DNA of 10,937 nucleotides from a virus. The notes beneath the pieces are model-generated. The model saw only the letters and a program-made list of their open reading frames with translations, searched no databases and had not been told where the DNA came from. The DNA lies in UHGV virus genome UHGV-0193172. One strand, written 5' to 3'. Made by a program: the position numbers and the translations under genes. Position 1 is the first letter of the stretch; each line of letters opens with the position of its first letter. Positions 1 through 10,937 of this stretch are shown here, one piece after another.

Positions 1-1
1 G

Positions 2-154
2 AAAATCTTCTGAACGACGGAAAATAAGACCGAAGGCATCATTGAAAATTCGCAGCGCATTCACCGTGCCAATTTTCAGCTCTCCGGTCATTTTATCGCC
101 GGAACGCTGAACGGCGTTACCAGCCTTGTTTACTGTTTCCTGCAAACCGAGGTT
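2..154 (-). CDS. Partial tail-fibre variable (C-terminal) exon, silent copy inside the invertible segment; 5' end at the crossover site, 3' end cut by the window start
   Basis: Minus-strand frame is open from 154 to the window edge (NLGLQETVNKAGNAVQRSGDKMTGELKIGTVNALRIFNDAFGLIFRRSEDF...). It begins immediately inside the gix-like site, with a TAA (155-157, minus) in the outer half-site, as expected for the non-expressed orientation of a Mu-G/P2-type invertible tail-fibre segment. Not in the ORF track because it is truncated. Confidence 0.45.
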
Positions 155-162
155 TTAGATAA
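137..162. other. DNA-invertase crossover site (gix/hix/pix-like 26-bp imperfect dyad)
   Basis: TTCCTGCAAACCGAGGTTTTAGATAA matches my recollection of the Gin gix site (TTCCTGTAAACCGAGGTTTTGGATAA) at 24 of 26 positions; it lies about 55 bp upstream of the invertase start, the usual position of the invertase-proximal site. Confidence 0.7.
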
Positions 163-216: not shown

Positions 217-816
217 GTGCTGATTGGTTATGTAAGGGTATCAACAAATGACCAGAATACAGACCTGCAACGAAACGCTCTTGTTTGCGCAGGATGTGAA
301 CAAATATTTGAAGATAAATTAAGCGGGACAAAGACAGACCGACCGGGATTAAAACGCGCTTTAAAGCGGCTTCAAAAAGGTGACACGCTGGTTGTCTGGA
401 AACTGGATCGCCTCGGGCGAAGCATGAAACATCTGATTTCTCTCGTCGGGGAACTACGGGAGCGAGGGATTAATTTTCGCAGTCTGACCGACAGCATAGA
501 TACATCTTCTCCAATGGGGCGTTTTTTCTTCCACGTTATGGGTGCCCTGGCTGAAATGGAACGTGAATTAATTGTTGAACGTACACTGGCCGGACTGGCG
601 GCAGCGCGCGCACGGGGGCGCACAGGCGGACGTCGCCCGAAGCTGACAAAAGAACAGCATGAGCAAATAGCAAGGCTGATCAAAAACGGTCATGACAGGA
701 AACAACTGGCGATCATTTACGACATCGGCATATCGACGATTTATCGTTATCACCCTGTAGGCGATATACAGGCTGAAGAAACAACCAGGCAGACTCAGGA
801 AAATGAAAACCGCTAA
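217..816 (+). CDS. pin: Serine-recombinase DNA invertase, Pin/Gin/Hin/Cin family
   Basis: ORF track 199..816; the product from the GTG at 217 (read as MLIGYVRVSTNDQNTDLQRNAL...DTLVVWKLDRLGRS...SLTDSIDTSSPMGRFFFHVMGALAEMERELIVERT...) is near-identical to my recollection of E. coli Pin and closely related to Hin/Gin. GGGAGA Shine-Dalgarno 7 nt upstream of GTG 217. Start codon choice (GTG 217 vs TTG 199) is uncertain. Confidence 0.9.
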   Translation: MLIGYVRVSTNDQNTDLQRNALVCAGCEQIFEDKLSGTKTDRPGLKRALKRLQKGDTLVVWKLDRLGRSMKHLISLVGELRERGINFRSLTDSIDTSSPMGRFFFHVMGALAEMERELIVERTLAGLAAARARGRTGGRRPKLTKEQHEQIARLIKNGHDRKQLAIIYDIGISTIYRYHPVGDIQAEETTRQTQENENR

Positions 817-835
817 TCTGACCATTAGCGGTTTT
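806..835. terminator. Bidirectional hairpin terminator between convergent pin and the T-U ORF
   Basis: 12-bp stem AAAACCGCTAAT / ATTAGCGGTTTT (806-817 / 824-835) with a 6-nt loop; A/T runs on both sides; overlaps the pin stop codon (814-816) and sits 8 bp from the T-U stop (843-845). Confidence 0.5.
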
Positions 836-842
836 GCGTTAA

Positions 843-1322
843 TCAAAACAGCCCTTTAACGGAGCTGGCCGCGCTGTTAAGGGATGATGTGACCTTATCT
901 TTGAAGCCGGACAGCATATCACTGAACGATGAGGATTGCAGGCGCTCCCGCAAATCCTCATCACAGCGTTCAAGAGTCAGTGAAAATTCTATCTTTTTCG
1001 CCTTACCGTAGCGATCAAACTCGGAGCGGGTCGTATTCGTTTCAGTCAGTACATACATGCCGTAAATCTGCCCGACACCATCAATCAGAGGCCAGGGGCG
1101 TCCTGTATATGCCTGCGTGGTCAGCAGCGAAAGCGACACTTCGCCACCTGTAATTTCAGGATAAAGCACGCCAGAAAGCACGATGCGATCATCACCTGCA
1201 CCGATATACTGCCAGCTTGCTGAGCGGTTACTGACCTGCGCAATCTTCCGCTCCTGCCACTCCCCACGAACAGCAAGTGCGCGGGGCAGGTTCTTAAAGA
1301 CAATATCGCCGGGGCCAATACG
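843..1322 (-). other. gpU-like tail protein domain (P2 U family) with no start codon of its own in this frame
   Basis: C-terminal 159 aa (RIGPGDIVFKNLPRALAVRGEWQERK...LSGVLYPEITGGEVSL...WPLIDGVGQIYGMYVLTE...KIEFSLTLERCDEDL) match my recollection of P2 gpU (…LAGVLYPELTGG…WPLLDG.GMIYGMYV…). The domain begins directly after an A7 tract at the junction (1323-1329). Confidence 0.6.
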
Positions 1323-3737
1323 TTTTTTTGTCTCATCAACCAGCTTACCTGTGTTATCAGCAATTTTGCTGAGTCTGCGTAGCGTGCCGGTATTGCTGTC
1401 TGTGAGCGGTTTGTTGTCTTTGGGTTTATCGCCTCCGGTGCCATTGCCATTTTCCGCAGACTTCGGCGGATTGATTTTCGCAATGTCTCCCTGAAACAGA
1501 GCAACCTTGTCCTGAAGAATGGCCGCACGCTGTGCGTCTTCGATTTTCTTTCTCGCCCTTTCCGCTTCATCCGGAAGCACACCGAGTTTTTCAAGTATCC
1601 ACGCCAGCGTATCCAGCAACATTTTTGCAGGCGTCAGAACAAGCTGTAGCGCGCCACCAAGAACGTTACCGAATATCTCGCCAGCACTGGTACATTTATC
1701 CAGCGTTTCCTTGCTGGACTCCATCGGTGACAGCAGCGATTTAAACCAGTTAAACACCTGGCTGATCCCGCTTCCGATTGCGTCAAAAACAGGACCAAAC
1801 CGTTCAAAGGTTTCGCGCAACGGGGTCAGCCTTTCCATAATCCCGCTGAACACCCCGGCAAAAAATGCCCTGATGGGATCCCAGTATTTCCAGATAAGAA
1901 CGGCAGCTCCGGCAAGCGCAGCCACGATAAGACCAACCGGACTGAACAACGCCCCGATAGCGCCTCCCAGTAAAGAAACGGAACCCGTCACCATTCCCCA
2001 TAGTGCTGGCAGAACCCTGACAGCATTCATTGATCCGGTCAGGAGGGAAAAACCAAGACGCAGTTTTGCCAGCGGGCCAGCAAGCACACCAATAGCCAGC
2101 GACAACGAGCCAACCGTTGCAGTCATTGCCAGCAGTGCACCGCCTGCAATCAGTAGCTGGCGCGTCAGTGCGGGATGGGCCTGCGCCAGCGCCGTCACCT
2201 TTGATACCACACGCGTGAGCCACTGCGTGACAGAACGCAGCGGACCATCAATCAGATCTGCAATGCGGATGCGCAACCCTTCCCATGCACTGCTGAGTGA
2301 TTTCAAATCGCCGTCAAGGTTGTTGGCCATAACCTTTGCCGTGCGTTCAGCCTCACCGCGCGCGCCTTCAAGTTCTTTTCTCAGTTTGGGTAAGGAGCCG
2401 TCACCTGCCGCATCAACGAGGGCCATAAATGATGTGAAAGCCTCTTCTCCGGCAATGTCCTTAAAGAACGATACCCGGTCAACTTCCCCGTATTTGCGGG
2501 TAGCTTTATAAAGGTCAGCCAGCACATCCTCCATCGGGCGCATTTTGCCCCCGGCATCCGAGACAGACACGCCAAGCTCTTTCAGCGCCTCTGCTGCCGC
2601 CTTTGGCGGTGATGCCAGACGAGCCAGGCTGGCACGCATTGCCGTACCAGCATCACTCCCCCTGATACCCATATTCGCCAGCACGCCCGCCATCGCTGCG
2701 GCCTGCTCCAGCGATATTCCCAGCTTACCCGCCACCGGACCTGCATATTTCATGGTTTCACCCAGTGCGCGAAGGTCAGTGTTGGTACGGGTAAACGCTG
2801 CGGTGAGTGTGTCGCCGACCCGGTCCATCTGGTCAGCAGAAAGACCGAACTGCGTCAGAATATTTGAGCCAATATCCGCCGTCTCACCGAGGTCCATACC
2901 GCCAGCCGTTGCCATGCTCAGTACGCCAGGGAGCGCAGCCTGAATGGCCTGTGGTGTGAAGCCAGCCATTGCAAGAAATGCCTGCCCACTGGCGGCATCG
3001 CCTGCGGTGAACTGCGTTTCAGAGCCAAGTTTTAACGCCTGCTCACGCAGCGCCTTAAACTGCGGGCTGTTTTTGTCGATTCGCGTCAGTGCCTGAACGC
3101 GGGACATCTCTTTCCCGAACCCGATCGCAGGCTGCAAAAAACGCCCGGCAGCATAGCCGCCCGCCGCTGCCGCACCAATTGCCAGCGCACCACCTGTTTT
3201 CAGTTTTCCCGCTGTTTCCTGCGCGCGCGAATACCGCTCACGCGCCTGCGTTACACGCGCAAGCGCCTGCCGTTCGCGTTCAAGCTGGTTGTTGTACTGT
3301 TCGGTGCGTCTGATGGCCTGCTGGATGGTGTTATCGCTGCCTGTCAGGGAAATGCCGTGGCGTTTCAGCTCTCCGCCAATCTCCCGCATTTTCTGAATTT
3401 CCCGTGTGCGCGATTCATTCAGGCGTTCAAGCCGGGTGCTTAACTGCTGCATCAGCTTTTGTTGTTTTTCGCTGAGCACTGTACCCGTGCGTTGTAACTG
3501 ATTAAGGGCGTTAAGCTGGCGTCGTGCTTTCACGATACCCGCATCCGCTTTACTGACAGCGTCGCGGGCGCGCTCAAATGAACGCGCCTGACGCTCGAGA
3601 TTTTTGATCGCCCCCTGCGTTCGCTGGATGGAGTCACCAAACTGCCCCATCAGGCGGCGGGCGTTTTCGGCAGGCCGGGTCAGCCTGTCAACGGCGCTGA
3701 AAGCGACCCGGATATCAAGAGTCTTCATTGTCTGCAT
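843..3737 (-). CDS. Phage tail tape-measure protein (P2 gpT-like) continuing in frame into a gpU-like tail domain (T-U fusion ORF)
   Basis: ORF track 843..3764, 973 aa. Long helical, Ala/Gly-rich protein with hydrophobic glycine-zipper-like stretches typical of tape-measure proteins; it lies immediately downstream of the E/E' chaperone pair and its start overlaps the E' end. Start is probably ATG 3737 or 3728 (GTG 3764 also possible). The last ~159 aa resemble gpU (see next feature). Confidence 0.8.
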   Translation of the reverse strand: MQTMKTLDIRVAFSAVDRLTRPAENARRLMGQFGDSIQRTQGAIKNLERQARSFERARDAVSKADAGIVKARRQLNALNQLQRTGTVLSEKQQKLMQQLSTRLERLNESRTREIQKMREIGGELKRHGISLTGSDNTIQQAIRRTEQYNNQLERERQALARVTQARERYSRAQETAGKLKTGGALAIGAAAAGGYAAGRFLQPAIGFGKEMSRVQALTRIDKNSPQFKALREQALKLGSETQFTAGDAASGQAFLAMAGFTPQAIQAALPGVLSMATAGGMDLGETADIGSNILTQFGLSADQMDRVGDTLTAAFTRTNTDLRALGETMKYAGPVAGKLGISLEQAAAMAGVLANMGIRGSDAGTAMRASLARLASPPKAAAEALKELGVSVSDAGGKMRPMEDVLADLYKATRKYGEVDRVSFFKDIAGEEAFTSFMALVDAAGDGSLPKLRKELEGARGEAERTAKVMANNLDGDLKSLSSAWEGLRIRIADLIDGPLRSVTQWLTRVVSKVTALAQAHPALTRQLLIAGGALLAMTATVGSLSLAIGVLAGPLAKLRLGFSLLTGSMNAVRVLPALWGMVTGSVSLLGGAIGALFSPVGLIVAALAGAAVLIWKYWDPIRAFFAGVFSGIMERLTPLRETFERFGPVFDAIGSGISQVFNWFKSLLSPMESSKETLDKCTSAGEIFGNVLGGALQLVLTPAKMLLDTLAWILEKLGVLPDEAERARKKIEDAQRAAILQDKVALFQGDIAKINPPKSAENGNGTGGDKPKDNKPLTDSNTGTLRRLSKIADNTGKLVDETKKRIGPGDIVFKNLPRALAVRGEWQERKIAQVSNRSASWQYIGAGDDRIVLSGVLYPEITGGEVSLSLLTTQAYTGRPWPLIDGVGQIYGMYVLTETNTTRSEFDRYGKAKKIEFSLTLERCDEDLRERLQSSSFSDMLSGFKDKVTSSLNSAASSVKGLF

Positions 3738-4244
3738 TCCCGCTGCGAAGTGCCGCCCGCTCACGCCAGCTAACCACTTCGCCGGGCGTCATCATGAAGA
3801 TTTCGGCGGGCGACCAGTTAAAAATAACGGCAATATCTGCCACAAAGTCTTCTATGTGCTCAAAGCACACAACCGTGATCAGGCTTCCGTCGCCTGTTCG
3901 TTCTTCCCGCCAGAGTCCGCACCGCTCAAAAAATTTACGGCAACCACACATAACTGAATAAAGTCACGGGATGCCATTTTTTTGATCGTCACTTCATCCA
4001 GTCGCGGTGATGTCACGCGTGACAGCAGCGTAAACATGGATTCCGCTTTCAGATTCAGCACATCAGACAGCGACAAATCTCGCAGAGATCCAGCCTGCTC
4101 AATAGCCCCGGTGATCTCCACATACGTGATTTTTTCGCCGCCTCGCTCAATTGGTTGGGTAAGTTTTACGCCACGCTCACTGGTTTCTTTCACAGTGTCA
4201 GCAACTACCGTGTTTTCGGTATCGATGTTTTTCGTCTCTTTCAT
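3715..4244 (-). CDS. E+E' -1 programmed-frameshift tail chaperone product (shift at 3927-3933, about 176 aa)
   Basis: Minus-strand T_TTT_TTG (plus-strand CAAAAAA, 3927-3933) is in the X_XXY_YYZ register of the E frame (codons AAT TTT TTG). The -1 frame is open from there to the TGA at 3715-3717 (the track's 3715..3951 ORF), ending inside the start of T. This is the conserved arrangement in P2 E/E' and lambda G/GT. Confidence 0.65.
3879..4244 (-). CDS. Tail assembly chaperone gpE-like (upstream product of the E/E' pair)
   Basis: ORF track 121 aa; AAAGGAG Shine-Dalgarno 7 nt upstream of ATG 4244; lies between the tail tube and tape-measure genes and contains an in-register T_TTT_TTG slippery heptamer near its 3' end. 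Confidence 0.75.
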   Translation of the reverse strand: MKETKNIDTENTVVADTVKETSERGVKLTQPIERGGEKITYVEITGAIEQAGSLRDLSLSDVLNLKAESMFTLLSRVTSPRLDEVTIKKMASRDFIQLCVVAVNFLSGADSGGKNEQATEA

Positions 4245-4298
4245 CAGGAAACTCCTTTCAGTCAGAGGCGACGCACTGCGCCGCCTGCATATTACTTA

Positions 4299-4811
4299 TC
4301 AGCCAAGCCCAAGCGCGGAACGGATGCGATCGGGCACAATGTCCTTGCCGTCCTTCCGGTAAATGAAGTTCAGCAGGTCAATCTCCCACAGCGGGCGATC
4401 GTTAACGCTCAGCTTGTAGTAGGTGTTTTTAATGGCGTAAGAGTGTGATGTGGCTTCGCCCTGTTTGGCTTCCCCCATATCAATTTCCGTCACACGTCCG
4501 CGCATTTCGACTTCATACAGGTCGCTTTCTGCATCGGTGTAGTATTCACCCGCAAAACGCAGCAGCGTGCCGTCAATCGTGCCGCCATACTTAAGGAACA
4601 GCTCACGAACTGCGCCCCCCATGACAAAGCTCGCATCAAGCGCGGAGTCGTCCAGACCGAGATCAATACTTACCGCACCCATCATGCCACCACCCCGGTA
4701 GCTGTCGGTTTTGCGCGTCAGCTTAGGCAGAGTGACGGACGTCACCTTACCCACTTCGTTTTCACCATCCACAAACAGCGTAAAAAAGCGAAGATGTTTT
4801 GGCACAGCCAT
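4299..4811 (-). CDS. Contractile tail tube protein (P2 gpFII-like)
   Basis: 170 aa, MAVPKHLRFFTLFVDGE...LPKLTRKTDSYRGGGMMGAVSIDLGLDD...YYKLSV...EIDLLNF resembles P2 FII; GGGAGGTG Shine-Dalgarno upstream; start overlaps the FI stop (TGATG at 4809-4813). Confidence 0.85.
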   Translation of the reverse strand: MAVPKHLRFFTLFVDGENEVGKVTSVTLPKLTRKTDSYRGGGMMGAVSIDLGLDDSALDASFVMGGAVRELFLKYGGTIDGTLLRFAGEYYTDAESDLYEVEMRGRVTEIDMGEAKQGEATSHSYAIKNTYYKLSVNDRPLWEIDLLNFIYRKDGKDIVPDRIRSALGLG

Positions 4812-5995
4812 CAGGCACCTCCCAGCACCGAAAATGCGGGTTCAAAGTATTCATCAGTAAACGTCTGGTAAAGCTCCATATCTTCCAGCGGGGGAACAGG
4901 CGTATATTTGTAGCGAATACGCACACGCCCCTGACGTAAATCCGTGGTGCTGTTATCCACCACGTCATACCAGCACTCCGCGCCAATCAGTTTCCCGGCA
5001 GTAACCAGTGAATCCAGTTTTGCCCTGATGGCACTGATAACATCCTTCACGTTCGCAGGCGTCAGTGGACTGTCGATGGTTTCAAACTGCGCTTCCGCAA
5101 TTGAATCAGCCAACACCTGTGCGGTTCGGGTATACACCTCAAAGATGTAGGCGTTCGTTTCCGGTGTGCGGTTGCCCCAGAAGCGGAACCCGTTGCGACG
5201 AATAATGGTCGTGATTTCTTTGTTGTTGAGGCTGTTGGCATCGCTGTCTTCGGCCTGCAACGACCAGAACACATGCCTCGACATCCCCAGCACATTTTTA
5301 ACCGGAACGTTGGACAGTGATTTGTGCCAGCCCTGCTCATGGTCAATGTACGCACGAAGGCCGCACGCATAGGCAGGCGCGGGGAACGTTTCGTTTTTGC
5401 CACTTTTCGGGTTGTAGGCGATGAAGTCCGGCCATAAGAGCATCACCTCACGTTCGTTGAATTTCTGGCGATAGGTAATCGCCTCAGCCATCGTGTTACA
5501 GCCGTGACATGAGGCATACACAAACGCGCGCAGTTTACCTGCAATCACGCACAGGGATTTTGTTACAGCCTCCGTGTCCAGCTCCGGCGCGGCCAGAATA
5601 CGCGGACGGTATCCGATGCTTTCATCCTGCTCTGCAACAAGCAGCGCATACATCCCCGTATAGCTGCCGTCATCCTCAGAACCACCGATAACCAGTTGAT
5701 CCTGCGTCTTTCCGTCTTCTTCTTTGTGTTCAGCCACGCGAACGACGATCACCTTTGTGCTCACCTGGTCTGAGATGGCCTTAAGCGCACGATAAAGCGT
5801 CCCCGTTGTTCCGCATTTTCCCAGCACGTCATTGACGCGGGTCAGCAGTGTGGGCTTGTTCAGCGGGAACAGCTTCGCGTCCGCATCATCCGCCGTTGCC
5901 ACGATACCGATAACGCTGGAATCAACATCGTTAATCGCTGTTACCAGGTCGGTATTTTCCGTAACACGGGCACCATGAAAACGAGTTTCACTCAT
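4811..5995 (-). CDS. Contractile tail sheath protein (P2 gpFI-like)
   Basis: 394 aa, size and sequence character of P2 FI sheath; AAGGGG Shine-Dalgarno before ATG 5995; immediately upstream of the tube gene with a 1-nt stop/start overlap. Confidence 0.85.
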   Translation of the reverse strand: MSETRFHGARVTENTDLVTAINDVDSSVIGIVATADDADAKLFPLNKPTLLTRVNDVLGKCGTTGTLYRALKAISDQVSTKVIVVRVAEHKEEDGKTQDQLVIGGSEDDGSYTGMYALLVAEQDESIGYRPRILAAPELDTEAVTKSLCVIAGKLRAFVYASCHGCNTMAEAITYRQKFNEREVMLLWPDFIAYNPKSGKNETFPAPAYACGLRAYIDHEQGWHKSLSNVPVKNVLGMSRHVFWSLQAEDSDANSLNNKEITTIIRRNGFRFWGNRTPETNAYIFEVYTRTAQVLADSIAEAQFETIDSPLTPANVKDVISAIRAKLDSLVTAGKLIGAECWYDVVDNSTTDLRQGRVRIRYKYTPVPPLEDMELYQTFTDEYFEPAFSVLGGA

Positions 5996-6152
5996 AGCTT
6001 CAGCCCCTTGTATCCGTTAAATGATTCAGCAACAATCATCACCCACCACGCGCGTAATCTCACCCCTGCGCTATTCTCCCGCCACGGCGACAACAAAAAG
6101 CAGTAACCCCCTCCGCACGCACATGCGACCATGCCGCACAGGGAGGGAACAG

Positions 6153-7262
6153 ATGACCGACACCACCATGCAATTGCTCAGTCAGGGCACAGCCCCCGTG
6201 AAAATGCCGGATTTTGATATTCTCGCGGAGGGTAAAACGCTGTCAGGCGTGGCAGAGCGCCTGATGAGCCTGTCACTGACCGACAACCGGGGATTTGAGG
6301 CGGACCAGCTCACCATCACGCTGGATGATGCGGATGGTCAGTTGCAGCTACCGCCACGGGGCGCGCGCCTGACGGTTCTCATTGGCTGGAAAGGAGAACC
6401 GCTGACAGAAAAAGGCACTTACATTGTTGATGAAATCGCTCACGAAGGACCGCCGGACAGGCTGACTGTTTCAGCCAGAAGCGCAGATTTTCGGGATGAA
6501 TTTAACGTTAAACGTGAGGTGTCCTGGCATGATGTGACCGTTGAGCGTGTGGTATCCGCCATCGCTCATCGGTATGGTCTGAAACCGCAAATCAGCGAAA
6601 TGCTGATGGATATCGAAATCGACCACGCCGACCAGACCGAAGAAAGCGACATGTCCTTCCTTACGCGCATGGCGGAAATGCTGGGCGCAATCACCACGGT
6701 AAAAAGCGGCAATCTGTTATTCATCATGCCAGGTGGTGGCGTGAACGCGCAGGGCCAGCCGTTGCCCTCGTTCGCCATTACACGCAGCAGCGGCGATCGC
6801 CATCAGTTCCGCATTGCTGACCGCGAGGCGTATACGGGGGTACGCGCTTACTGGCTTGATCTTAATTACGGGAAAAAGAAAAAAGTCAGCGTGAAACGCC
6901 GCAAACCGCCAAAACCCAAAAAGGAGAAAAGCAGCAGCCGTGAAGGTGATTATATGGAAGGCGCGGAAGGCAATGTGTTTGTGTTACGCAAGACTTATCA
7001 GAACGAGCAGGCAGCAAGACGCGCAGCGGCGGCAAAGTGGCAGCAGCTACAACGCGGAGCTGCATCATTCTCCATCACGCTGGCGCGTGGACGTGCGGAA
7101 CTCTACCCCGAAATGCATGGCACGGTGACAGGCTTCAAAAGTGACATCGACAATCAGGACTGGATTATTGCAAAAGCCGAGCACACCATTGATAACAGCG
7201 GCTTTACCACGCAGCTTGAGCTTGAAGCAAAAATCCCGGAATGGATAGCAGAAACAGAGTGA
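6153..7262 (+). CDS. Phage late control gene D protein (P2 gpD-like tail/baseplate hub protein)
   Basis: ORF track 6021..7262; the part from MTDTTMQLLSQGTAPVKMPDFDIL... with SLTDNRGFEADQL, RSADFRDEF, SWHD, a lysine-rich KKKKVSVKRRKPPKPKKEK stretch and GFTTQLELE matches my recollection of the gpD family. Preferred start is ATG 6153 with a GGGAGGG Shine-Dalgarno 5 nt upstream; ATG 6021 lacks one and would put the promoter inside FI. Confidence 0.85.
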   Translation: MTDTTMQLLSQGTAPVKMPDFDILAEGKTLSGVAERLMSLSLTDNRGFEADQLTITLDDADGQLQLPPRGARLTVLIGWKGEPLTEKGTYIVDEIAHEGPPDRLTVSARSADFRDEFNVKREVSWHDVTVERVVSAIAHRYGLKPQISEMLMDIEIDHADQTEESDMSFLTRMAEMLGAITTVKSGNLLFIMPGGGVNAQGQPLPSFAITRSSGDRHQFRIADREAYTGVRAYWLDLNYGKKKKVSVKRRKPPKPKKEKSSSREGDYMEGAEGNVFVLRKTYQNEQAARRAAAAKWQQLQRGAASFSITLARGRAELYPEMHGTVTGFKSDIDNQDWIIAKAEHTIDNSGFTTQLELEAKIPEWIAETE

Positions 7263-7328
7263 GCAACTTAGATATATTAGCTCAGACTTAAGCTGGCAAG
7301 TTTACAGTATAGAATTAAACATAAACGA

Positions 7329-7360
7329 CGGTCCGCTCCGTGCCAGAAGCGGACTTTGTC
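7329..7360. terminator. Bidirectional hairpin terminator between convergent gpD and the AT-rich cargo gene
   Basis: Stem GTCCGCT / AGCGGAC (7331-7337 / 7348-7354) followed by TTTG on the plus strand and a T-rich run on the minus strand; 69 bp after the D stop and 23 bp after the cargo-gene stop. Confidence 0.5.
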
Positions 7361-7382
7361 ATCCCCATGTAAGGTTGATTGC

Positions 7383-8405
7383 TTAATACGCATTTAATTT
7401 AAATTTGTATTTGCTTTCTATGTAATGGATAAATTCAATTATGCTTTTTTCTATCGCGTCTAATATATGAATATATCCATCCCGATTTAAGGTCCTATCC
7501 AACTCAAAATGATGAACTATCCCATGTCTATATTGTATGATTTCAGAAATTCGATTCTCAAGGTAATCAACTGATTTTCCAATTCTTTTTTTCTTATAAA
7601 GAATCGCTCTCACATCTATATCTAGCCACTCTTTATATGCTTTGTTTAGGAGGGTTAAGTTTTGAAAAGTGTAATTTCTTGCAATAACACTTTCTATTGA
7701 AATATTTCCTTTCTCTATCTCAAGCAGAATATCAAAATCAACTTTTTGCTTATACGATGTTCTTTTTGCTATTGCGAAAGGATCGTACTTTATAAGTATT
7801 TGAAAAGCTCTAGAGAAAAAATATTCAAACATAGCAACCGCAAAAGGTACTAATCCATTATATATAACTCTACTGGGATCCATACATTGCATATCATCAA
7901 AGTATTCGGATAAGCCGCCATCTTCCGGCAGGTTTAATTTAATAGAAGGTTCAGGTAAGGCATGTTTAACAGCGGAAATCTCATGATGAACATGATTAAA
8001 TATTGAAGAAATGCCACGACTGATCGGACTACTAGAATCCTCCCATAGAGGAGCGTATCTATTTTTCCCATAATCACCTATAAGTGTTCCACCAAAAAGA
8101 CTCCTTGCGCCTTTTAGAACATCATTAAGCATTTTTACATCATGCCAACTAGCGCTAGATAAATTACGCACATGCAATGCCCATTTATTACCAGATATGT
8201 GTAGTTCGTCATTTGAAACAGGATATATATCAGCCGAAACTCCATCTGTAGATTTGAAGTCCGTATCATCAAACCAAGAGTAATTTAACGTTCCTTGGGG
8301 CCATTCCCACAAATGTTTACACCTTTTAAAACCTAAATTTTCAAGATAATTTTTAAGTTCGTTTCTAGTTGCTTTTTTAGGGTACAGCGTTATATCTCTT
8401 CCCAT
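7383..8405 (-). CDS. Hypothetical 340-aa protein in an AT-rich cargo island; candidate HEPN-like (R-x4-H) abortive-infection/defence protein
   Basis: ORF track 340 aa; ATG 8405 with AGGTGA-like Shine-Dalgarno upstream. Region about 7263-8560 is visibly AT-rich (roughly one-third G+C by eye) against >50% in the flanking phage genes. Predicted-helical C-terminal half carries RHGIVH (aa 293-298). No family recognised by eye. Confidence 0.6.
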   Translation of the reverse strand: MGRDITLYPKKATRNELKNYLENLGFKRCKHLWEWPQGTLNYSWFDDTDFKSTDGVSADIYPVSNDELHISGNKWALHVRNLSSASWHDVKMLNDVLKGARSLFGGTLIGDYGKNRYAPLWEDSSSPISRGISSIFNHVHHEISAVKHALPEPSIKLNLPEDGGLSEYFDDMQCMDPSRVIYNGLVPFAVAMFEYFFSRAFQILIKYDPFAIAKRTSYKQKVDFDILLEIEKGNISIESVIARNYTFQNLTLLNKAYKEWLDIDVRAILYKKKRIGKSVDYLENRISEIIQYRHGIVHHFELDRTLNRDGYIHILDAIEKSIIEFIHYIESKYKFKLNAY

Positions 8406-8537
8406 GCTTTATTCACCTGACATACAATATTTTACATTTTAACTATCATGAACGTATGAATTTTTACATTGGATGTATGGAAGTTCAACAGCTATTGAAA
8501 GTTCAATTTTCACTCTTCGCACAGAGCGAGCTGTTAG

Positions 8538-8566
8538 TTGGAATTAGGGATCGTACAATCTAGAAT
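8538..8566 (+). promoter_or_regulatory. Putative sigma70 promoter for ogr
   Basis: TTGGAA (8538-8543), 17-bp spacer, TAGAAT (8561-8566), about 30 bp upstream of the ogr start and its GGGAGG Shine-Dalgarno. Confidence 0.4.
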
Positions 8567-8596: not shown

Positions 8597-8857
8597 ATGT
8601 TCCGTTGTCCGCTTTGTGGCGCATCTGCCCGTATCCGCACAAGTCGTCCGGAAAATGATTCAAACACCGTGCGGCAAAAGTATTACCAGTGTAACAATCT
8701 GGAATGCGGCGTATGCTTCTCAACACTGGAAGCTTTCCATAAATTCACATCGAAACAAGCCTCCGGCGTTCACTCTTCAGAAGGTATCCCGTGGCATGAG
8801 CTGCCAGCTTCACACAGGGGAAACAATCAGATGAGTTTGCCTTTACCTCAGAATTAA
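8597..8857 (+). CDS. ogr: Ogr/Delta-family zinc-finger late-gene transcriptional activator
   Basis: MFRCPLCGASARIRTSR...YYQCNNLECGVCF resembles my recollection of P2 Ogr (MFHCPLCQHAAHARTSR...YHQCQNVNCSATF) with the C-x2-C...C-x4-C zinc finger; it follows D as in P2. 86 aa, C-terminally longer than the P2 Ogr I recall. Confidence 0.85.
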   Translation: MFRCPLCGASARIRTSRPENDSNTVRQKYYQCNNLECGVCFSTLEAFHKFTSKQASGVHSSEGIPWHELPASHRGNNQMSLPLPQN

Positions 8858-9047: not shown

Positions 9048-9188
9048 ATGTCGCAAAAATCGCTTACGGCCATCACGTTCTGCGTGACGGTAATCCTCAT
9101 CATCTGGATGTTACACGGTTCGCTGTGCGAAATACGGATGAGCTTCTGGGGAGCGGAGTTTGCGGCGTTCTTACAGTGTAAGCAGTAA
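9048..9188 (+). CDS. Hok/Gef-family type I toxin (HokA-like small membrane peptide, 46 aa)
   Basis: Not in the ORF track (too short). ATG 9048 with AAGGAG Shine-Dalgarno 8 nt upstream. MSQKSLTAITFCVTVILIIWMLHGSLCEIRMSFWGAEFAAFLQCKQ has the N-terminal TM helix plus the SLCE(I/L)R and E(V/L/F)AAF(L/M) signature of Hok/Gef peptides (compare Hok ...[21 protein letters not shown] and HokA ...SLCELHIKQESYELAAFLACK, from memory). Confidence 0.7.
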   Translation: MSQKSLTAITFCVTVILIIWMLHGSLCEIRMSFWGAEFAAFLQCKQ

Positions 9189-9267
9189 GGAAACCGCGAC
9201 GGGGGAGCAATCCCCCGTCAATCGGTTGCCAGGGTAAGGCCGAAGTGGCACCCAAATTTAAATTGAG

Positions 9268-9300
9268 GCCCACCAGTAAGAGTGGTGGGCTTAACACTTG
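9268..9300 (+). terminator. Putative terminator / 3' stem-loop of the hok-like transcript
   Basis: Stem GCCCACCA / TGGTGGGC (9268-9275 / 9283-9290) followed by a T-rich tract; preceded by a GNRA-looped hairpin GACGGGGGA-GCAA-TCCCCCGTC (9198-9219). Confidence 0.35.
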
Positions 9301-9323
9301 TTTAAATTTGAAAGGAACTCTTT

Positions 9324-9620
9324 ATGAGTGAAATGGTATTTTGTCGCGGATGCGGCAAGGAAATACATAAAGATGCCACATCCTGCCCCAATTGTGGAGC
9401 ACCTCAAAGAACAGCAAGTTCAAAAAGCAGAATGACAGCCGCACTACTGGCTTTCTTTTTAGGTGGTCTTGGTGCACACAAATTTTATTTAGGTAAAGTG
9501 GGGCAAGGATTCCTTTACCTTATTTTTTGCTGGACATTCATTCCGGCAATCGTGGCATTTATTGAGTTTTTTATCTATCTATGCACCTCTGATGAAGATT
9601 TCGCCCGCAAATATGGCTGA
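9324..9620 (+). CDS. Small membrane protein with N-terminal zinc ribbon (CxxC...CxxC) and C-terminal TM2-like domain
   Basis: ORF track 98 aa; AAGGAA Shine-Dalgarno upstream; CRGCGKEIHKDATSCPNCG zinc-ribbon motif followed by two hydrophobic helices (LLAFFLGGLGAHKFYLGK...LYLIFCWTFIPAIVAFIEFFIYL). Confidence 0.6.
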   Translation: MSEMVFCRGCGKEIHKDATSCPNCGAPQRTASSKSRMTAALLAFFLGGLGAHKFYLGKVGQGFLYLIFCWTFIPAIVAFIEFFIYLCTSDEDFARKYG

Positions 9621-9647
9621 TGCCTAACGGACGAATCAGAATGACAA

Positions 9648-9680
9648 ACCCGCAGCGTAAAAATTGCGGGTTTTCTTTTT
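9648..9680 (+). terminator. Rho-independent terminator after the Zn-ribbon/TM2 gene
   Basis: Stem CCCGCA / TGCGGG around a 10-nt loop, followed by TTTTCTTTTT (9671-9680). Confidence 0.65.
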
Positions 9681-9885
9681 GTCACCCTCACACGTGAGGG
9701 CATCATACTTAAGACAAAGCCCGCAATATTGCGAGCTTACCCTACATCTCGAAAATGTGGTCACTGCGTGGACACGCTCTGACATAAATCCTTTTATATC
9801 AATTAATTAAATCATCATTTTTTTCATCAACAAGGATTTTCACGTTTGTGTTACCTGTATGAGACGAGAGTTAACCGGACAAGTG

Positions 9886-9941: not shown

Positions 9942-10937
9942 ATGATACAACCTATTTCCGGCCCTCCTCCTGGGCAACCACCAGGTCAGGGAGATAATCT
10001 GCCGTCTGGCACGGGCAATCAGCCTTTATCCAGTCAGCAACGTACTTCGCTGGAAAGCTTAATGACGAAAGTGACCTCACTGACGCAACAGCAAAGAGCA
10101 GAACTGTGGGCGGGTATCAGGCACGATATTGGTCTGTCGGGAGATTCACCGCTGCTTTCGCGTCACTTCCCTGCCGCTGAGCATAATCTGGCGCAACGTC
10201 TGCTGGCCGCGCAAAAAAGCCATTCTGCCCGCCAGCTTTTAGCGCAATTAGGGGAGTATTTACGTCTGGGGAATAATCGTCAGGCGGTCACGGATTATAT
10301 CCGTCATAACTTTGGTCAGACGCCGCTGAATCAGCTCTCACCGGAGCAATTAAAAACCATTCTCACCCTGTTGCAGGAAGGGAAGATGGTTATTCCGCAA
10401 CCACAGCAGCGCGAGGCGACCGACCGTCCTTTATTACCGGCGGAGCACAATGCGCTAAAACAGCTGGTGACCAAACTTGCGGCGGCAACGGGGGAACCCA
10501 GCAAACAGATCTGGCAATCGATGCTGGAACTTTCCGGGGTGAAAGATGGCGAGTTAATTCCAGCGAAACTGTTTAACCATCTGGTGACCTGGCTACAGGC
10601 GCGTCAGACGCTAAGCCAGCAAAATACGCCGACGCTGGAATCACTACAGATGACGCTAAAACAACCTTTAGATGCCAGTGAACTGGCGGCGTTATCGGCA
10701 TATATCCAGCAAAAATATGGTCTTTCTGCGCAATCATCGCTTTCTTCTGCCCAGGCCGAGGATATTCTTAATCAGCTTTATCAACGGCGGGTTAAAGGGA
10801 TTGATCCGCGTGTTATGCAACCGCTGCTTAATCCTTTTCCACCGATGATGGACACGTTGCAAAATATGGCAACGCGTCCCGCGCTGTGGATACTGTTAGT
10901 CGCGATTATCCTGATGCTGGTCTGGCTGGTTCGTTAA
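9942..10937 (+). CDS. flk: Flk (flagellar regulator; C-terminally membrane-anchored protein)
   Basis: ORF track 331 aa; AAGGA Shine-Dalgarno before ATG 9942; Pro/Gln-rich N-terminus and a single C-terminal hydrophobic anchor (ALWILLVAIILMLVWLVR), matching my recollection of enterobacterial Flk length and architecture. Stop codon is the last three bases of the window. Confidence 0.65.
   Translation: MIQPISGPPPGQPPGQGDNLPSGTGNQPLSSQQRTSLESLMTKVTSLTQQQRAELWAGIRHDIGLSGDSPLLSRHFPAAEHNLAQRLLAAQKSHSARQLLAQLGEYLRLGNNRQAVTDYIRHNFGQTPLNQLSPEQLKTILTLLQEGKMVIPQPQQREATDRPLLPAEHNALKQLVTKLAAATGEPSKQIWQSMLELSGVKDGELIPAKLFNHLVTWLQARQTLSQQNTPTLESLQMTLKQPLDASELAALSAYIQQKYGLSAQSSLSSAQAEDILNQLYQRRVKGIDPRVMQPLLNPFPPMMDTLQNMATRPALWILLVAIILMLVWLVR

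Follow-up and report, generated by a model that had tools for sequence, protein, structure and literature searches.

Divergent orientation of the FI-to-U tail block and D is the standard layout of P88-like prophages and probably centers on a bidirectional late promoter

In phage P2, the F operon (pF-FI-FII-E/E′-T-U-D, then ogr) has all seven of its genes in one direction, with D last and its start overlapped by U, and a −1 frameshift heptamer for E+E′ is annotated. Late promoters of the P2/186/P4 type depend on Ogr/Delta activators and carry a partial dyad, TGT-N12-ACA, centered about −55 from the start. The record for the P2 pP/pO promoters, which lie between terminase gene P and scaffold gene O and whose geometry has been mapped experimentally, annotates one activator site common to both; the mapped starts, 111 bp apart, are each 55.5 bp from the center of a TGT-N12-CCA dyad, which we located inside that site. 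Fels-2 (Felsduovirus) and Cartapus (Elveevirus) are P2-like phages in which an invertible tail-fiber segment and invertase immediately precede FI (H/G, inverted G′/H′, invertase, then tail module, D, and ogr), and their FI-through-U genes are codirectional with both the invertase and D, an order presumed to be ancestral. In P88 (Xuanwuvirus P88, Peduoviridae; NC_026014), the invertase is on the plus strand, U, T, E′, E, FII, and FI are on the minus strand, and D, ogr, and hok follow, D again on the plus strand. P88 is mitomycin C inducible and plaque forming, has a head and tail by electron microscopy, and was sequenced from virion DNA (PMC5285337), while Citrobacter phage phiSM is released spontaneously and forms plaques (PMC6456863). 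In the searchable literature, we found no explicit description of an inverted FI-U module, its promoters, or a bidirectional pF; the "inversion" of an ST131 preprint does involve a P88-like prophage, but the inverted part is its tail-fiber H segment rather than the FI-U block.

We analyzed 10,937 nt of the virus genome UHGV-0193172 (the window), with genes assigned from an open reading frame (ORF) map and Pfam matches (Table 1). FI, FII, E/E′, T, and U all lie on the minus strand (843 to 5995), while the plus strand carries the invertase, D, and ogr, so that the codirectional FETUD order of P2 is absent. An earlier sequence-only reading had described these strands, which the ORF map and Pfam confirm, and its gaps of 26 bp (817 to 842, bounded by two stops, that of the invertase at 816 and that of the ORF containing U at 843) and 157 bp (5996 to 6152, bounded by the starts of FI at 5995 and D at 6153) agree with the stop and start coordinates. 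Its description of U as convergent with the invertase gene (pin) holds for the ORF that contains U but not for U as a separate gene, since U is fused to T. The start of D is the ATG at 6153, and either residues 1 to 369 or residues 13 to 369 align with relatives. The window shares with the P2 operon its genes and their internal order, the frameshift heptamer, an Ogr-type late activator, and the type of activator box, but its proteins are only 31 to 49% identical to those of P2, the FI-through-U genes are flipped, and D comes with a leader, a ribosome-binding site, and probably a promoter of its own.

Table 1. Features of the 10,937-nt window
Feature	Position	Strand	Basis
gix/pix-like crossover site TTCCTGCAAACCGAGGTTTTAGATAA	136-161		Sole perfect AAACCNNGGTTT core in window (144-155)
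Din-family serine DNA invertase (pin/gin-like)	218-816 (ORF 199/218-816)	+	Pfam Resolvase 1.3e-50 and HTH_7
Hairpin, 12-bp stem AAAACCGCTAAT/ATTAGCGGTTTT, flanked by A-run and T-run	806-835		Terminator scan and sequence
T-U fusion ORF, 961 aa	843-3728 (ORF 843-3764)	-	PhageMin_Tail residues 240-439; Phage_P2_GpU residues 843-936
Junction of 423-bp in-frame deletion, 2-bp TT microhomology	1228-1229		blastn of window against relatives L001-L004; junction sequences
E′ reading frame, -1 relative to E	3715-3951	-	Pfam Phage_P2_GpE; slippery TTTTTTG at 3933-3927
E (tail assembly chaperone)	3879-4244	-	Position and annotation in relatives; tblastn 31% identity to P2 E
FII tail tube	4299-4811	-	Pfam Phage_tube 6.3e-47
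FI tail sheath	4811-5995	-	Pfam Phage_sheath_1, Gp18_domIII_N, Phage_sheath_1C
Divergent FI-D control region; proposed Ogr-dependent promoter pair (pF leftward, pD rightward)	5996-6152		Alignment of 43 distinct homologous regions; geometry statistics
Predicted -10 of pF, GATGAT; predicted start ~6029	6035-6040	-	Conserved GA.tAT, +43.5 to +48.5 from box center, 40 relatives
Ogr-type activator box TCTCCCGCCACGGCGACA (T[G/C]T-N12-ACA), center 6083.5	6075-6092		In 40 of 43 distinct relatives
Predicted extended -10 of pD, TG-C-GACCAT; predicted start ~6139	6124-6132	+	Conserved TG.aA.caT, equal offset on D side
D (baseplate hub/late control D), intact, 369 aa	6153-7262	+	Pfam Phage_GPD; PHROG 52 at 3.6e-166
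ogr/delta-type zinc-finger late activator	8597-8857	+	Pfam Ogr_Delta 5e-14

The gene order of P88, from the plus-strand invertase through the minus-strand block to D, ogr, and hok, is that of the window. P88 and its relatives P884B11, phiSM, PhiR44_2, and Chuche are 97% identical to the window at the nucleotide level over shared parts. For P88, the comparison concerns the right ~9.3 kb of the prophage, which is all that the window contains, and the identity extends over 84% of that length. Of the 21.7 kb of the ETEC1706 prophage, which is 100% identical, 18.8 kb align to P88, with ~97% identity in the main blocks. The ICTV genus criterion is ~70% nucleotide identity over the full length. We consider it most probable (roughly 85%) that the window represents a P88-like (Xuanwuvirus-type, Peduoviridae) prophage, specifically its right end, inserted beside flk in E. 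coli, that the divergence of FI-U from D and ogr is the standard functional layout of this clade, derived from a single old and fixed inversion, and that the FI-D gap most likely serves as a bidirectional late promoter.

The layout is widespread and fixed. The native FI-D junction is contiguous in 1,109 of 5,426 complete E. coli genomes, at least 150 of which carry the entire window layout at the flk locus, while a synthetic flipped junction was found in none of the 5,426. Gene order and strands as in the window recur in P88, 500465-2, P884B11, phiSM, PhiR44_2, and Chuche and in Klebsiella phage Kp4871-3 (Reginaelenavirus). The sequence-only reading had proposed a synteny comparison with related prophages; in our scan of species-representative genomes, all informative loci (~43 of ~43, from ~20 enterobacterial genera, with D 64 to 98% identical) have U, T, E, FII, and FI on the minus strand followed by D and ogr on the plus strand. 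The block is codirectional in phages whose D is at most 53% identical, namely, P2, Fels-2, Cartapus (~52 to 53% for the last two), and KP12. The statement that P2 and its relatives are all codirectional thus stands for Peduovirus, Felsduovirus, and Elveevirus and fails for Xuanwuvirus, Gemsvirus, and Reginaelenavirus.

This distribution bears directly on two explanations that treat the orientation as an anomaly. The sequence-only reading had raised misassembly, in which an assembler would have misoriented the 5.1-kb block, an idea for which we found no support beyond the comparison with P2. Identical junctions in so many complete genomes, produced by many laboratories and platforms, in independent phage genomes, including virion-derived P88, and in the ~43 loci from other genera leave it with practically no credence. 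Only marginally less improbable is an inversion that arose recently in this strain alone and inactivated the prophage by splitting D from its operon. The window copy does look degraded, given a 423-bp deletion across T and U, but the orientation is common to relatives with D identity as low as 64%, functional phages (P88 and phiSM) share it, D is intact, the FI-D gap retains a conserved promoter-like footprint, and among the 5,426 genomes, we did not find a codirectional order in the closest relatives. The ~5.1-kb inversion that had been suggested to uncouple D would therefore be ancient and date to the base of the clade, not to this strain; that it happened once is suggested by the gap in D identity (at least 64% versus at most 53%) rather than by a phylogeny. 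A lineage with a reorganized late region, also among the earlier suggestions, is borne out by the distribution of the P88-like clade. The sequence-only reading had itself named, as what would count against it, evidence that a known, functional group of phages has this orientation as its standard, and plaque-forming P88 and phiSM belong to just such a group.

We asked whether the neighboring invertase could account for the orientation. Like Mu G/Gin, P1 C/Cin, and e14 P/Pin, the window combines a Din-family invertase with a gix-like site; its gene, annotated in relatives as "recombinase family protein" or "DNA invertase," is 91 to 96% identical at the nucleotide level to gin of Mu and D108. Enzymes of this kind invert the DNA next to them, and the gene ends 26 bp from the end of the block, so that FI-U might be a second invertible segment. 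However, the Din-family switch acts on a tail-fiber segment upstream of the invertase, and the gix-like site marks the right end of that segment, most of which lies upstream of the window on the side of the invertase away from the block (window positions 1 to 162 are the inverted repeat of L001 9162 to 9323). No crossover sites flank the FI-U block, with neither gix/pix-like sites nor inverted repeats at 817 to 842 or 5996 to 6152, which leads us to reject an invertase-mediated origin or switch. Furthermore, the block was never seen flipped in the genomes surveyed above, in the several kilobases retrieved past U, no invertase was detectable for most relatives that share the layout, and Fels-2 and Cartapus have an invertase yet a codirectional block. 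A second invertible segment is accordingly very hard to credit. The divergent layout is the already known gene order of a functional phage group and is due to neither misassembly, recent rearrangement, nor an invertase switch.

The FI-D gap, 157 bp in P88 as well and with the same box, offers a possible mechanism by which D escaped being orphaned by the inversion. An exact TGT-N12-ACA has no match anywhere in the window. The box was found only after one mismatch was allowed and the gap was compared with the P88 P-O region and with 43 relatives; it reads TCT-N12-ACA, one mismatch from the P2 consensus, while many relatives have a perfect TGT-N12-ACA and 3 of 43 have no recognizable box. In P88, the composite TTCT-N12-ACAACAAAA is confined to the P-O and FI-D intergenic regions. 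Both sides of the box carry xAxxxT hexamers at +43.5 to +48.5 from its center in 40 of 43 distinct FI-D regions, with no indels between, while box-to-ATG distances differ by up to 10 bp. These conserved −10-like hexamers place the window box at about −55 from the predicted starts on both sides, and an Ogr/Delta zinc-finger activator is encoded by the same element. As in P2 pP/pO, one dyad box lies midway; the two predicted −10 hexamers occupy identical offsets, and the predicted starts are ~110 bp apart. The FI-D geometry is deduced from conservation and has the sheath gene FI on one side and the hub gene D on the other. Since the box and its equidistant hexamers copy the pP/pO geometry, D probably has its own late promoter.

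From these patterns, we infer Ogr binding and two transcription starts in the gap. A single Ogr-binding box would lie ~55 bp upstream of each of two divergent starts, one at ~6029 (minus strand) driving FI through U and the other at ~6139 (plus strand) driving D. The FI-to-U and invertase transcripts, which converge, would both end at the hairpin at 806 to 835, probably a shared bidirectional terminator. A generic sigma-70 scan of 5900 to 6300 returned no promoter at the predicted pF and pD positions, as expected where promoters are activator dependent, although this null result is not positive evidence. A sigma-70 match at 6246 to 6219 (minus strand, inside D) was disregarded, as its position is not conserved relative to anything. 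A search of the whole window against Rfam at gathering thresholds gave no match.

Alternatively, the layout could be standard and the box serve pF only, with D relying on a promoter unrelated to it or on low constitutive expression. On the D side, GACCAT makes a weak −10, the sigma-70 scan found nothing on that side, and the window box is imperfect (TCT). Against this, the D-side TG.aA.caT is kept at a fixed distance from the box in 40 diverged sequences in which neighboring positions and leader lengths vary, that distance equals those on the pF side and in P2 pP/pO, and D is a structural hub protein needed simultaneously with the rest of the tail. We therefore regard a box for pF alone as unlikely. 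We lean toward the P88-like FI-D gap being a bidirectional Ogr-dependent late promoter, the second of its kind and independent in origin, in which one palindromic box at about −55 would serve both pF and a new pD, and the symmetry of the Ogr site may have let a 5-kb inversion in an essential late operon be tolerated and fixed across a Peduoviridae clade. We found no description of the gap in these terms in the searchable literature.

The window copy itself differs from its relatives in ways separate from block orientation. Compared with every relative, 423 bp are missing at 1228/1229, which removes the last ~103 codons of T and the first 34 codons of U. In relatives, P88 included, U and T each form a gene of their own (162 and 935 aa, respectively), and both are intact in P88; in the window, there is no separate U gene, and the single 961-aa ORF keeps the C-terminal 128 residues of gpU in frame with the tape measure. 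An identical fusion protein is encoded on an ENA metagenome contig. Given this deletion, the window copy lacks a complete set of essential tail genes, is probably tail defective, and is probably a defective derivative of a P88-like member rather than a viable phage. The deletion is an event separate from, and later than, the block inversion. A low-GC ORF of 340 aa also sits between D and ogr (7276 to 8561, absent from P88), and ogr is 1.3 kb downstream of D, whereas it directly follows D in most relatives. Searches of this ORF with PADLOC and PHROG gave no match, and its sole Pfam match, to HEPN_RiboL-PSP, was subthreshold.

For the family, our results are mostly a caution that being unlike P2 does not equal being abnormal. 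The mark of defectiveness in the window copy is the T-U fusion deletion, not the orientation of the block. Divergent FI and D are a signature of the P88-like clade (Xuanwuvirus, Gemsvirus, and Reginaelenavirus), and since about one-fifth of complete E. coli genomes have this layout, annotators and prophage scanners should read it as such and not as damage. A box midway between FI and D would be a simple explanation for the continued late control of D after the inversion and, if true, would be the second case in nature, after P2 pP/pO, of divergent promoters built around a shared activator.

In P2, FI, FII, E, T, U, D and ogr all lie on one strand, whereas in the window FI through U lie opposite to D. 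The sequence-only reading had noted this contrast and had sized both flanking gaps exactly (817 to 842, 26 bp; 5996 to 6152, 157 bp), attributing the arrangement to an inversion, a misassembly, or a lineage with a reorganized late region. Our comparisons confirm the contrast and support that interpretation in part: the arrangement is a lineage-wide reorganized late region. In a megablast search of the window against 5,426 complete E. coli genomes, at least 150 carried the entire arrangement at flk, including ETEC1706 (100% identity), IHE3034, and O55:H7 DEC5A, and a 1.2-kb probe recovered the divergent FI|D junction as contiguous sequence, at several chromosomal sites, in 1,109 of the 5,426. 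Among collected phages, P88 (Xuanwuvirus P88), Xuanwuvirus P884B11, Citrobacter phage Shae_phiSM, PhiR44_2, and Chuche were 95 to 97% identical to the window, as were the predicted prophage records 500465-2, 520873, and 503458.

Order and strands in the P88 RefSeq record are identical to those of the window (invertase plus; U, T, E′, E, FII, and FI minus; D plus). P88 is a plaque-forming phage that was induced with mitomycin C; electron microscopy shows its head and tail, and its genome sequence came from the DNA of purified virions (PMC5285337). Citrobacter phage phiSM is released spontaneously from C. rodentium and forms plaques on E. coli K-12, with a reported 76.8% identity to P88 (PMC6456863). 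Since both are functional with this layout, the orientation is standard for a known, functional phage group; it is present in annotated public genomes of characterized phages and is thus already known. The description of phiSM virions as having long noncontractile, Siphoviridae-like tails (PMC6456863) disagrees with the phiSM genome (OR565851), whose sheath, tube, and baseplate hub are of the P2 type and ~96% identical to those of the window.

We asked how widely the layout extends by scanning for D protein in one genome per bacterial species and placing pin, U, T, E, FII, FI, D, and ogr by tblastn at the resulting 46 loci. Wherever the upstream region is retained (~43 of 46 loci), U, T, E, FII, and FI lie on the minus strand and D and ogr on the plus strand, with D identity ranging from 98% down to 64%. 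Their hosts include Salmonella, Klebsiella, Enterobacter, Citrobacter, Kosakonia, Serratia, Erwinia, Pantoea, Pectobacterium, Brenneria, Edwardsiella, and Symbiopectobacterium, among others, and an invertase adjoins U in only a handful. Klebsiella phage Kp4871-3 (Reginaelenavirus; D, 70%) shares this layout, whereas P2 (Peduovirus), Fels-2 (Felsduovirus), Cartapus (Elveevirus), and KP12, with D ~53% identical or less, are codirectional. In Fels-2 and Cartapus the invertase lies directly upstream of FI, and a reversal of FI through U is all that sets the P88 type apart from this arrangement. A gap in the distribution of D-hit identities separates the divergent from the codirectional group, and the simplest reading of this gap would be a single ancient inversion, at the root of a clade now spanning at least three ICTV genera.

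The neighboring invertase raises the alternative that the FI-to-U block is an invertible switch, which we reject. In a synthetic query for the flipped state, the invertase 3′ end ran into the reverse-complemented FI promoter-proximal region; none of the 5,426 complete E. coli genomes had one locus covering this junction, and a repeat search found no inverted repeat pairing the two block junctions. The sole gix/pix-type core in the window, AAACCGAGGTTT, lies within TTCCTGCAAACCGAGGTTTTAGATAA at 136 to 161, separated from the block by the invertase; this site closes the well-known invertible tail-fiber segment as its right inverted repeat. Window positions 1 to 162 are an inverted copy of positions 9162 to 9323 of the ETEC1706 genome region (L001); in ETEC1706 these positions mark the other end of the segment, ~2.7 kb upstream of the window. 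The invertase shares >91% DNA identity over ~450 bp with gin of Mu and D108, far closer to Mu than the remaining prophage, which suggests module exchange. A hairpin with a 12-bp stem (806 to 835), together with its flanking A and T runs, contains the invertase/U gap and looks like a common terminator for the convergent transcripts.

Features of the window, with the basis for each assignment
Feature	Position	Strand	Basis
Serine invertase	199/218-816	+	ORF list, Pfam scan
Long ORF, tape-measure domain and C-terminal Phage_P2_GpU domain	843-3764	-	ORF list, Pfam
E′ frame	3715-3951	-	ORF list, Pfam
E	3879-4244	-	ORF list
FII, tube	4299-4811	-	ORF list, Pfam
FI, sheath	4811-5995	-	ORF list, Pfam
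D	ORF opens 6021; real start ATG 6153 (to 7262)	+	GGGAGGG ribosome-binding site precedes ATG
Low-GC 340-aa ORF	7383-8405	-	ORF list
ogr	8597-8857	+	ORF list, Pfam
hok	9048-9188	+	
TM2-domain ORF	9324-9620	+	
flk, chromosomal gene	9942-10937		

A slippery heptamer, TTTTTTG, at 3927 to 3933 (minus strand) falls inside the E/E′ overlap, and E′ is in the -1 frame; thus, the P2-type programmed frameshift yielding E+E′ is conserved. D is an intact 369-aa ORF conserved from residue 1. RefSeq/PGAP annotation, inconsistent between genomes, in many of them calls D a 266-aa "contractile injection system protein, VgrG/Pvc8 family" (L001, 18886 to 19686), starting at the equivalent of 6462, and adds a spurious pseudo-CDS.

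This copy lacks 423 bp at 1228/1229 relative to every relative, with 2 bp of microhomology. The deletion spans the last ~103 codons of T, a spacer of 12 bp, and 34 codons from the start of U, leaving an in-frame T-U fusion of 961 aa (843 to 3728, minus strand). None of the best 8 of 1,374 matching complete-genome records holds the T-U junction in one piece. Since an identical protein is encoded on ENA metagenome contig ERZ1304393 NODE_2678, recorded in five samples, the fusion is unlikely to be an assembly error private to this sequence. T and U are annotated as essential tail genes in P2, so this copy is probably tail defective, from a cause unrelated to the inversion.

Between D and ogr lies an inserted low-GC segment (7276 to 8561; 32 to 37%), absent in P88 and present in IHE3034 and 500465-2. 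Its 340-aa ORF had no PADLOC or PHROG match and only a subthreshold Pfam match, to HEPN_RiboL-PSP; it resembles a moron and may be a defense gene, occupying a P2-like cargo site not reported before. A hok/gef toxin gene lies at the prophage end, with no Rfam match at the gathering threshold for an antisense RNA nearby. The hok-flk segment is variable (9254 to 9747): the window and ETEC1706 carry the TM2-domain ORF, in place of which IHE3034 and 500465-2 carry a zinc-ribbon gene and a TagO-like gene.

Among 43 aligned distinct FI-D gaps, T[G/C]T-N12-ACA occurs in 40, many with a perfect TGT-N12-ACA, and a conserved -10-like hexamer lies +43.5 to +48.5 from the box center on both sides. The D-side consensus is TG.aA.caT (TG-C-GACCAT in the window, 6124 to 6132) and the FI-side consensus GA.tAT (GATGAT, the complement of 6035 to 6040). 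No indels separate the box from either hexamer, while the intervening sequence and leader lengths vary (box to ATG, 78.5 to 88.5 bp on the FI side and typically 67.5 to 71.5 bp on the D side). In the P2 record, the divergent promoters pP and pO are annotated with one activator-binding site between them. Their mapped starts are 111 bp apart, and each lies 55.5 bp from the center of a TGT-N12-CCA dyad that we located in that site; the starts predicted in the window (~6029, minus; ~6139, plus) match this geometry at ~110 bp. From the conserved box and hexamers at this geometry, we propose that D would be transcribed from its own Ogr-dependent promoter, pD, with one box common to pD and the leftward FI promoter, pF; Ogr binding, both start sites, and Ogr dependence are predicted from sequence. 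Two observations weigh against this model: the box is imperfect in the window (TCT, one mismatch), and a generic sigma-70 scan returned no promoter at the predicted positions. We found no description of such a shared-box arrangement in the searchable literature, and we regard it as a modest, testable by-product of this analysis.

The P88 record (NC_026014) places a doubtful 44-aa ORF (gp50) across the FI-D control region and leaves unannotated an ogr 97% identical to the window's (34476 to 34736). An extended motif, TTCT-N12-ACAACAAAA, occurs exactly twice in the 35.8 kb of P88, once in the P-O gap and once between FI and D, and S and V overlap (19576 to 20789), with neither the orf30 nor the pV intergenic region of P2. 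Given this overlap and the restriction of the motif to these two gaps, the P88-type clade may run its entire late program from two bidirectional promoter regions, compared with the four promoters of P2.
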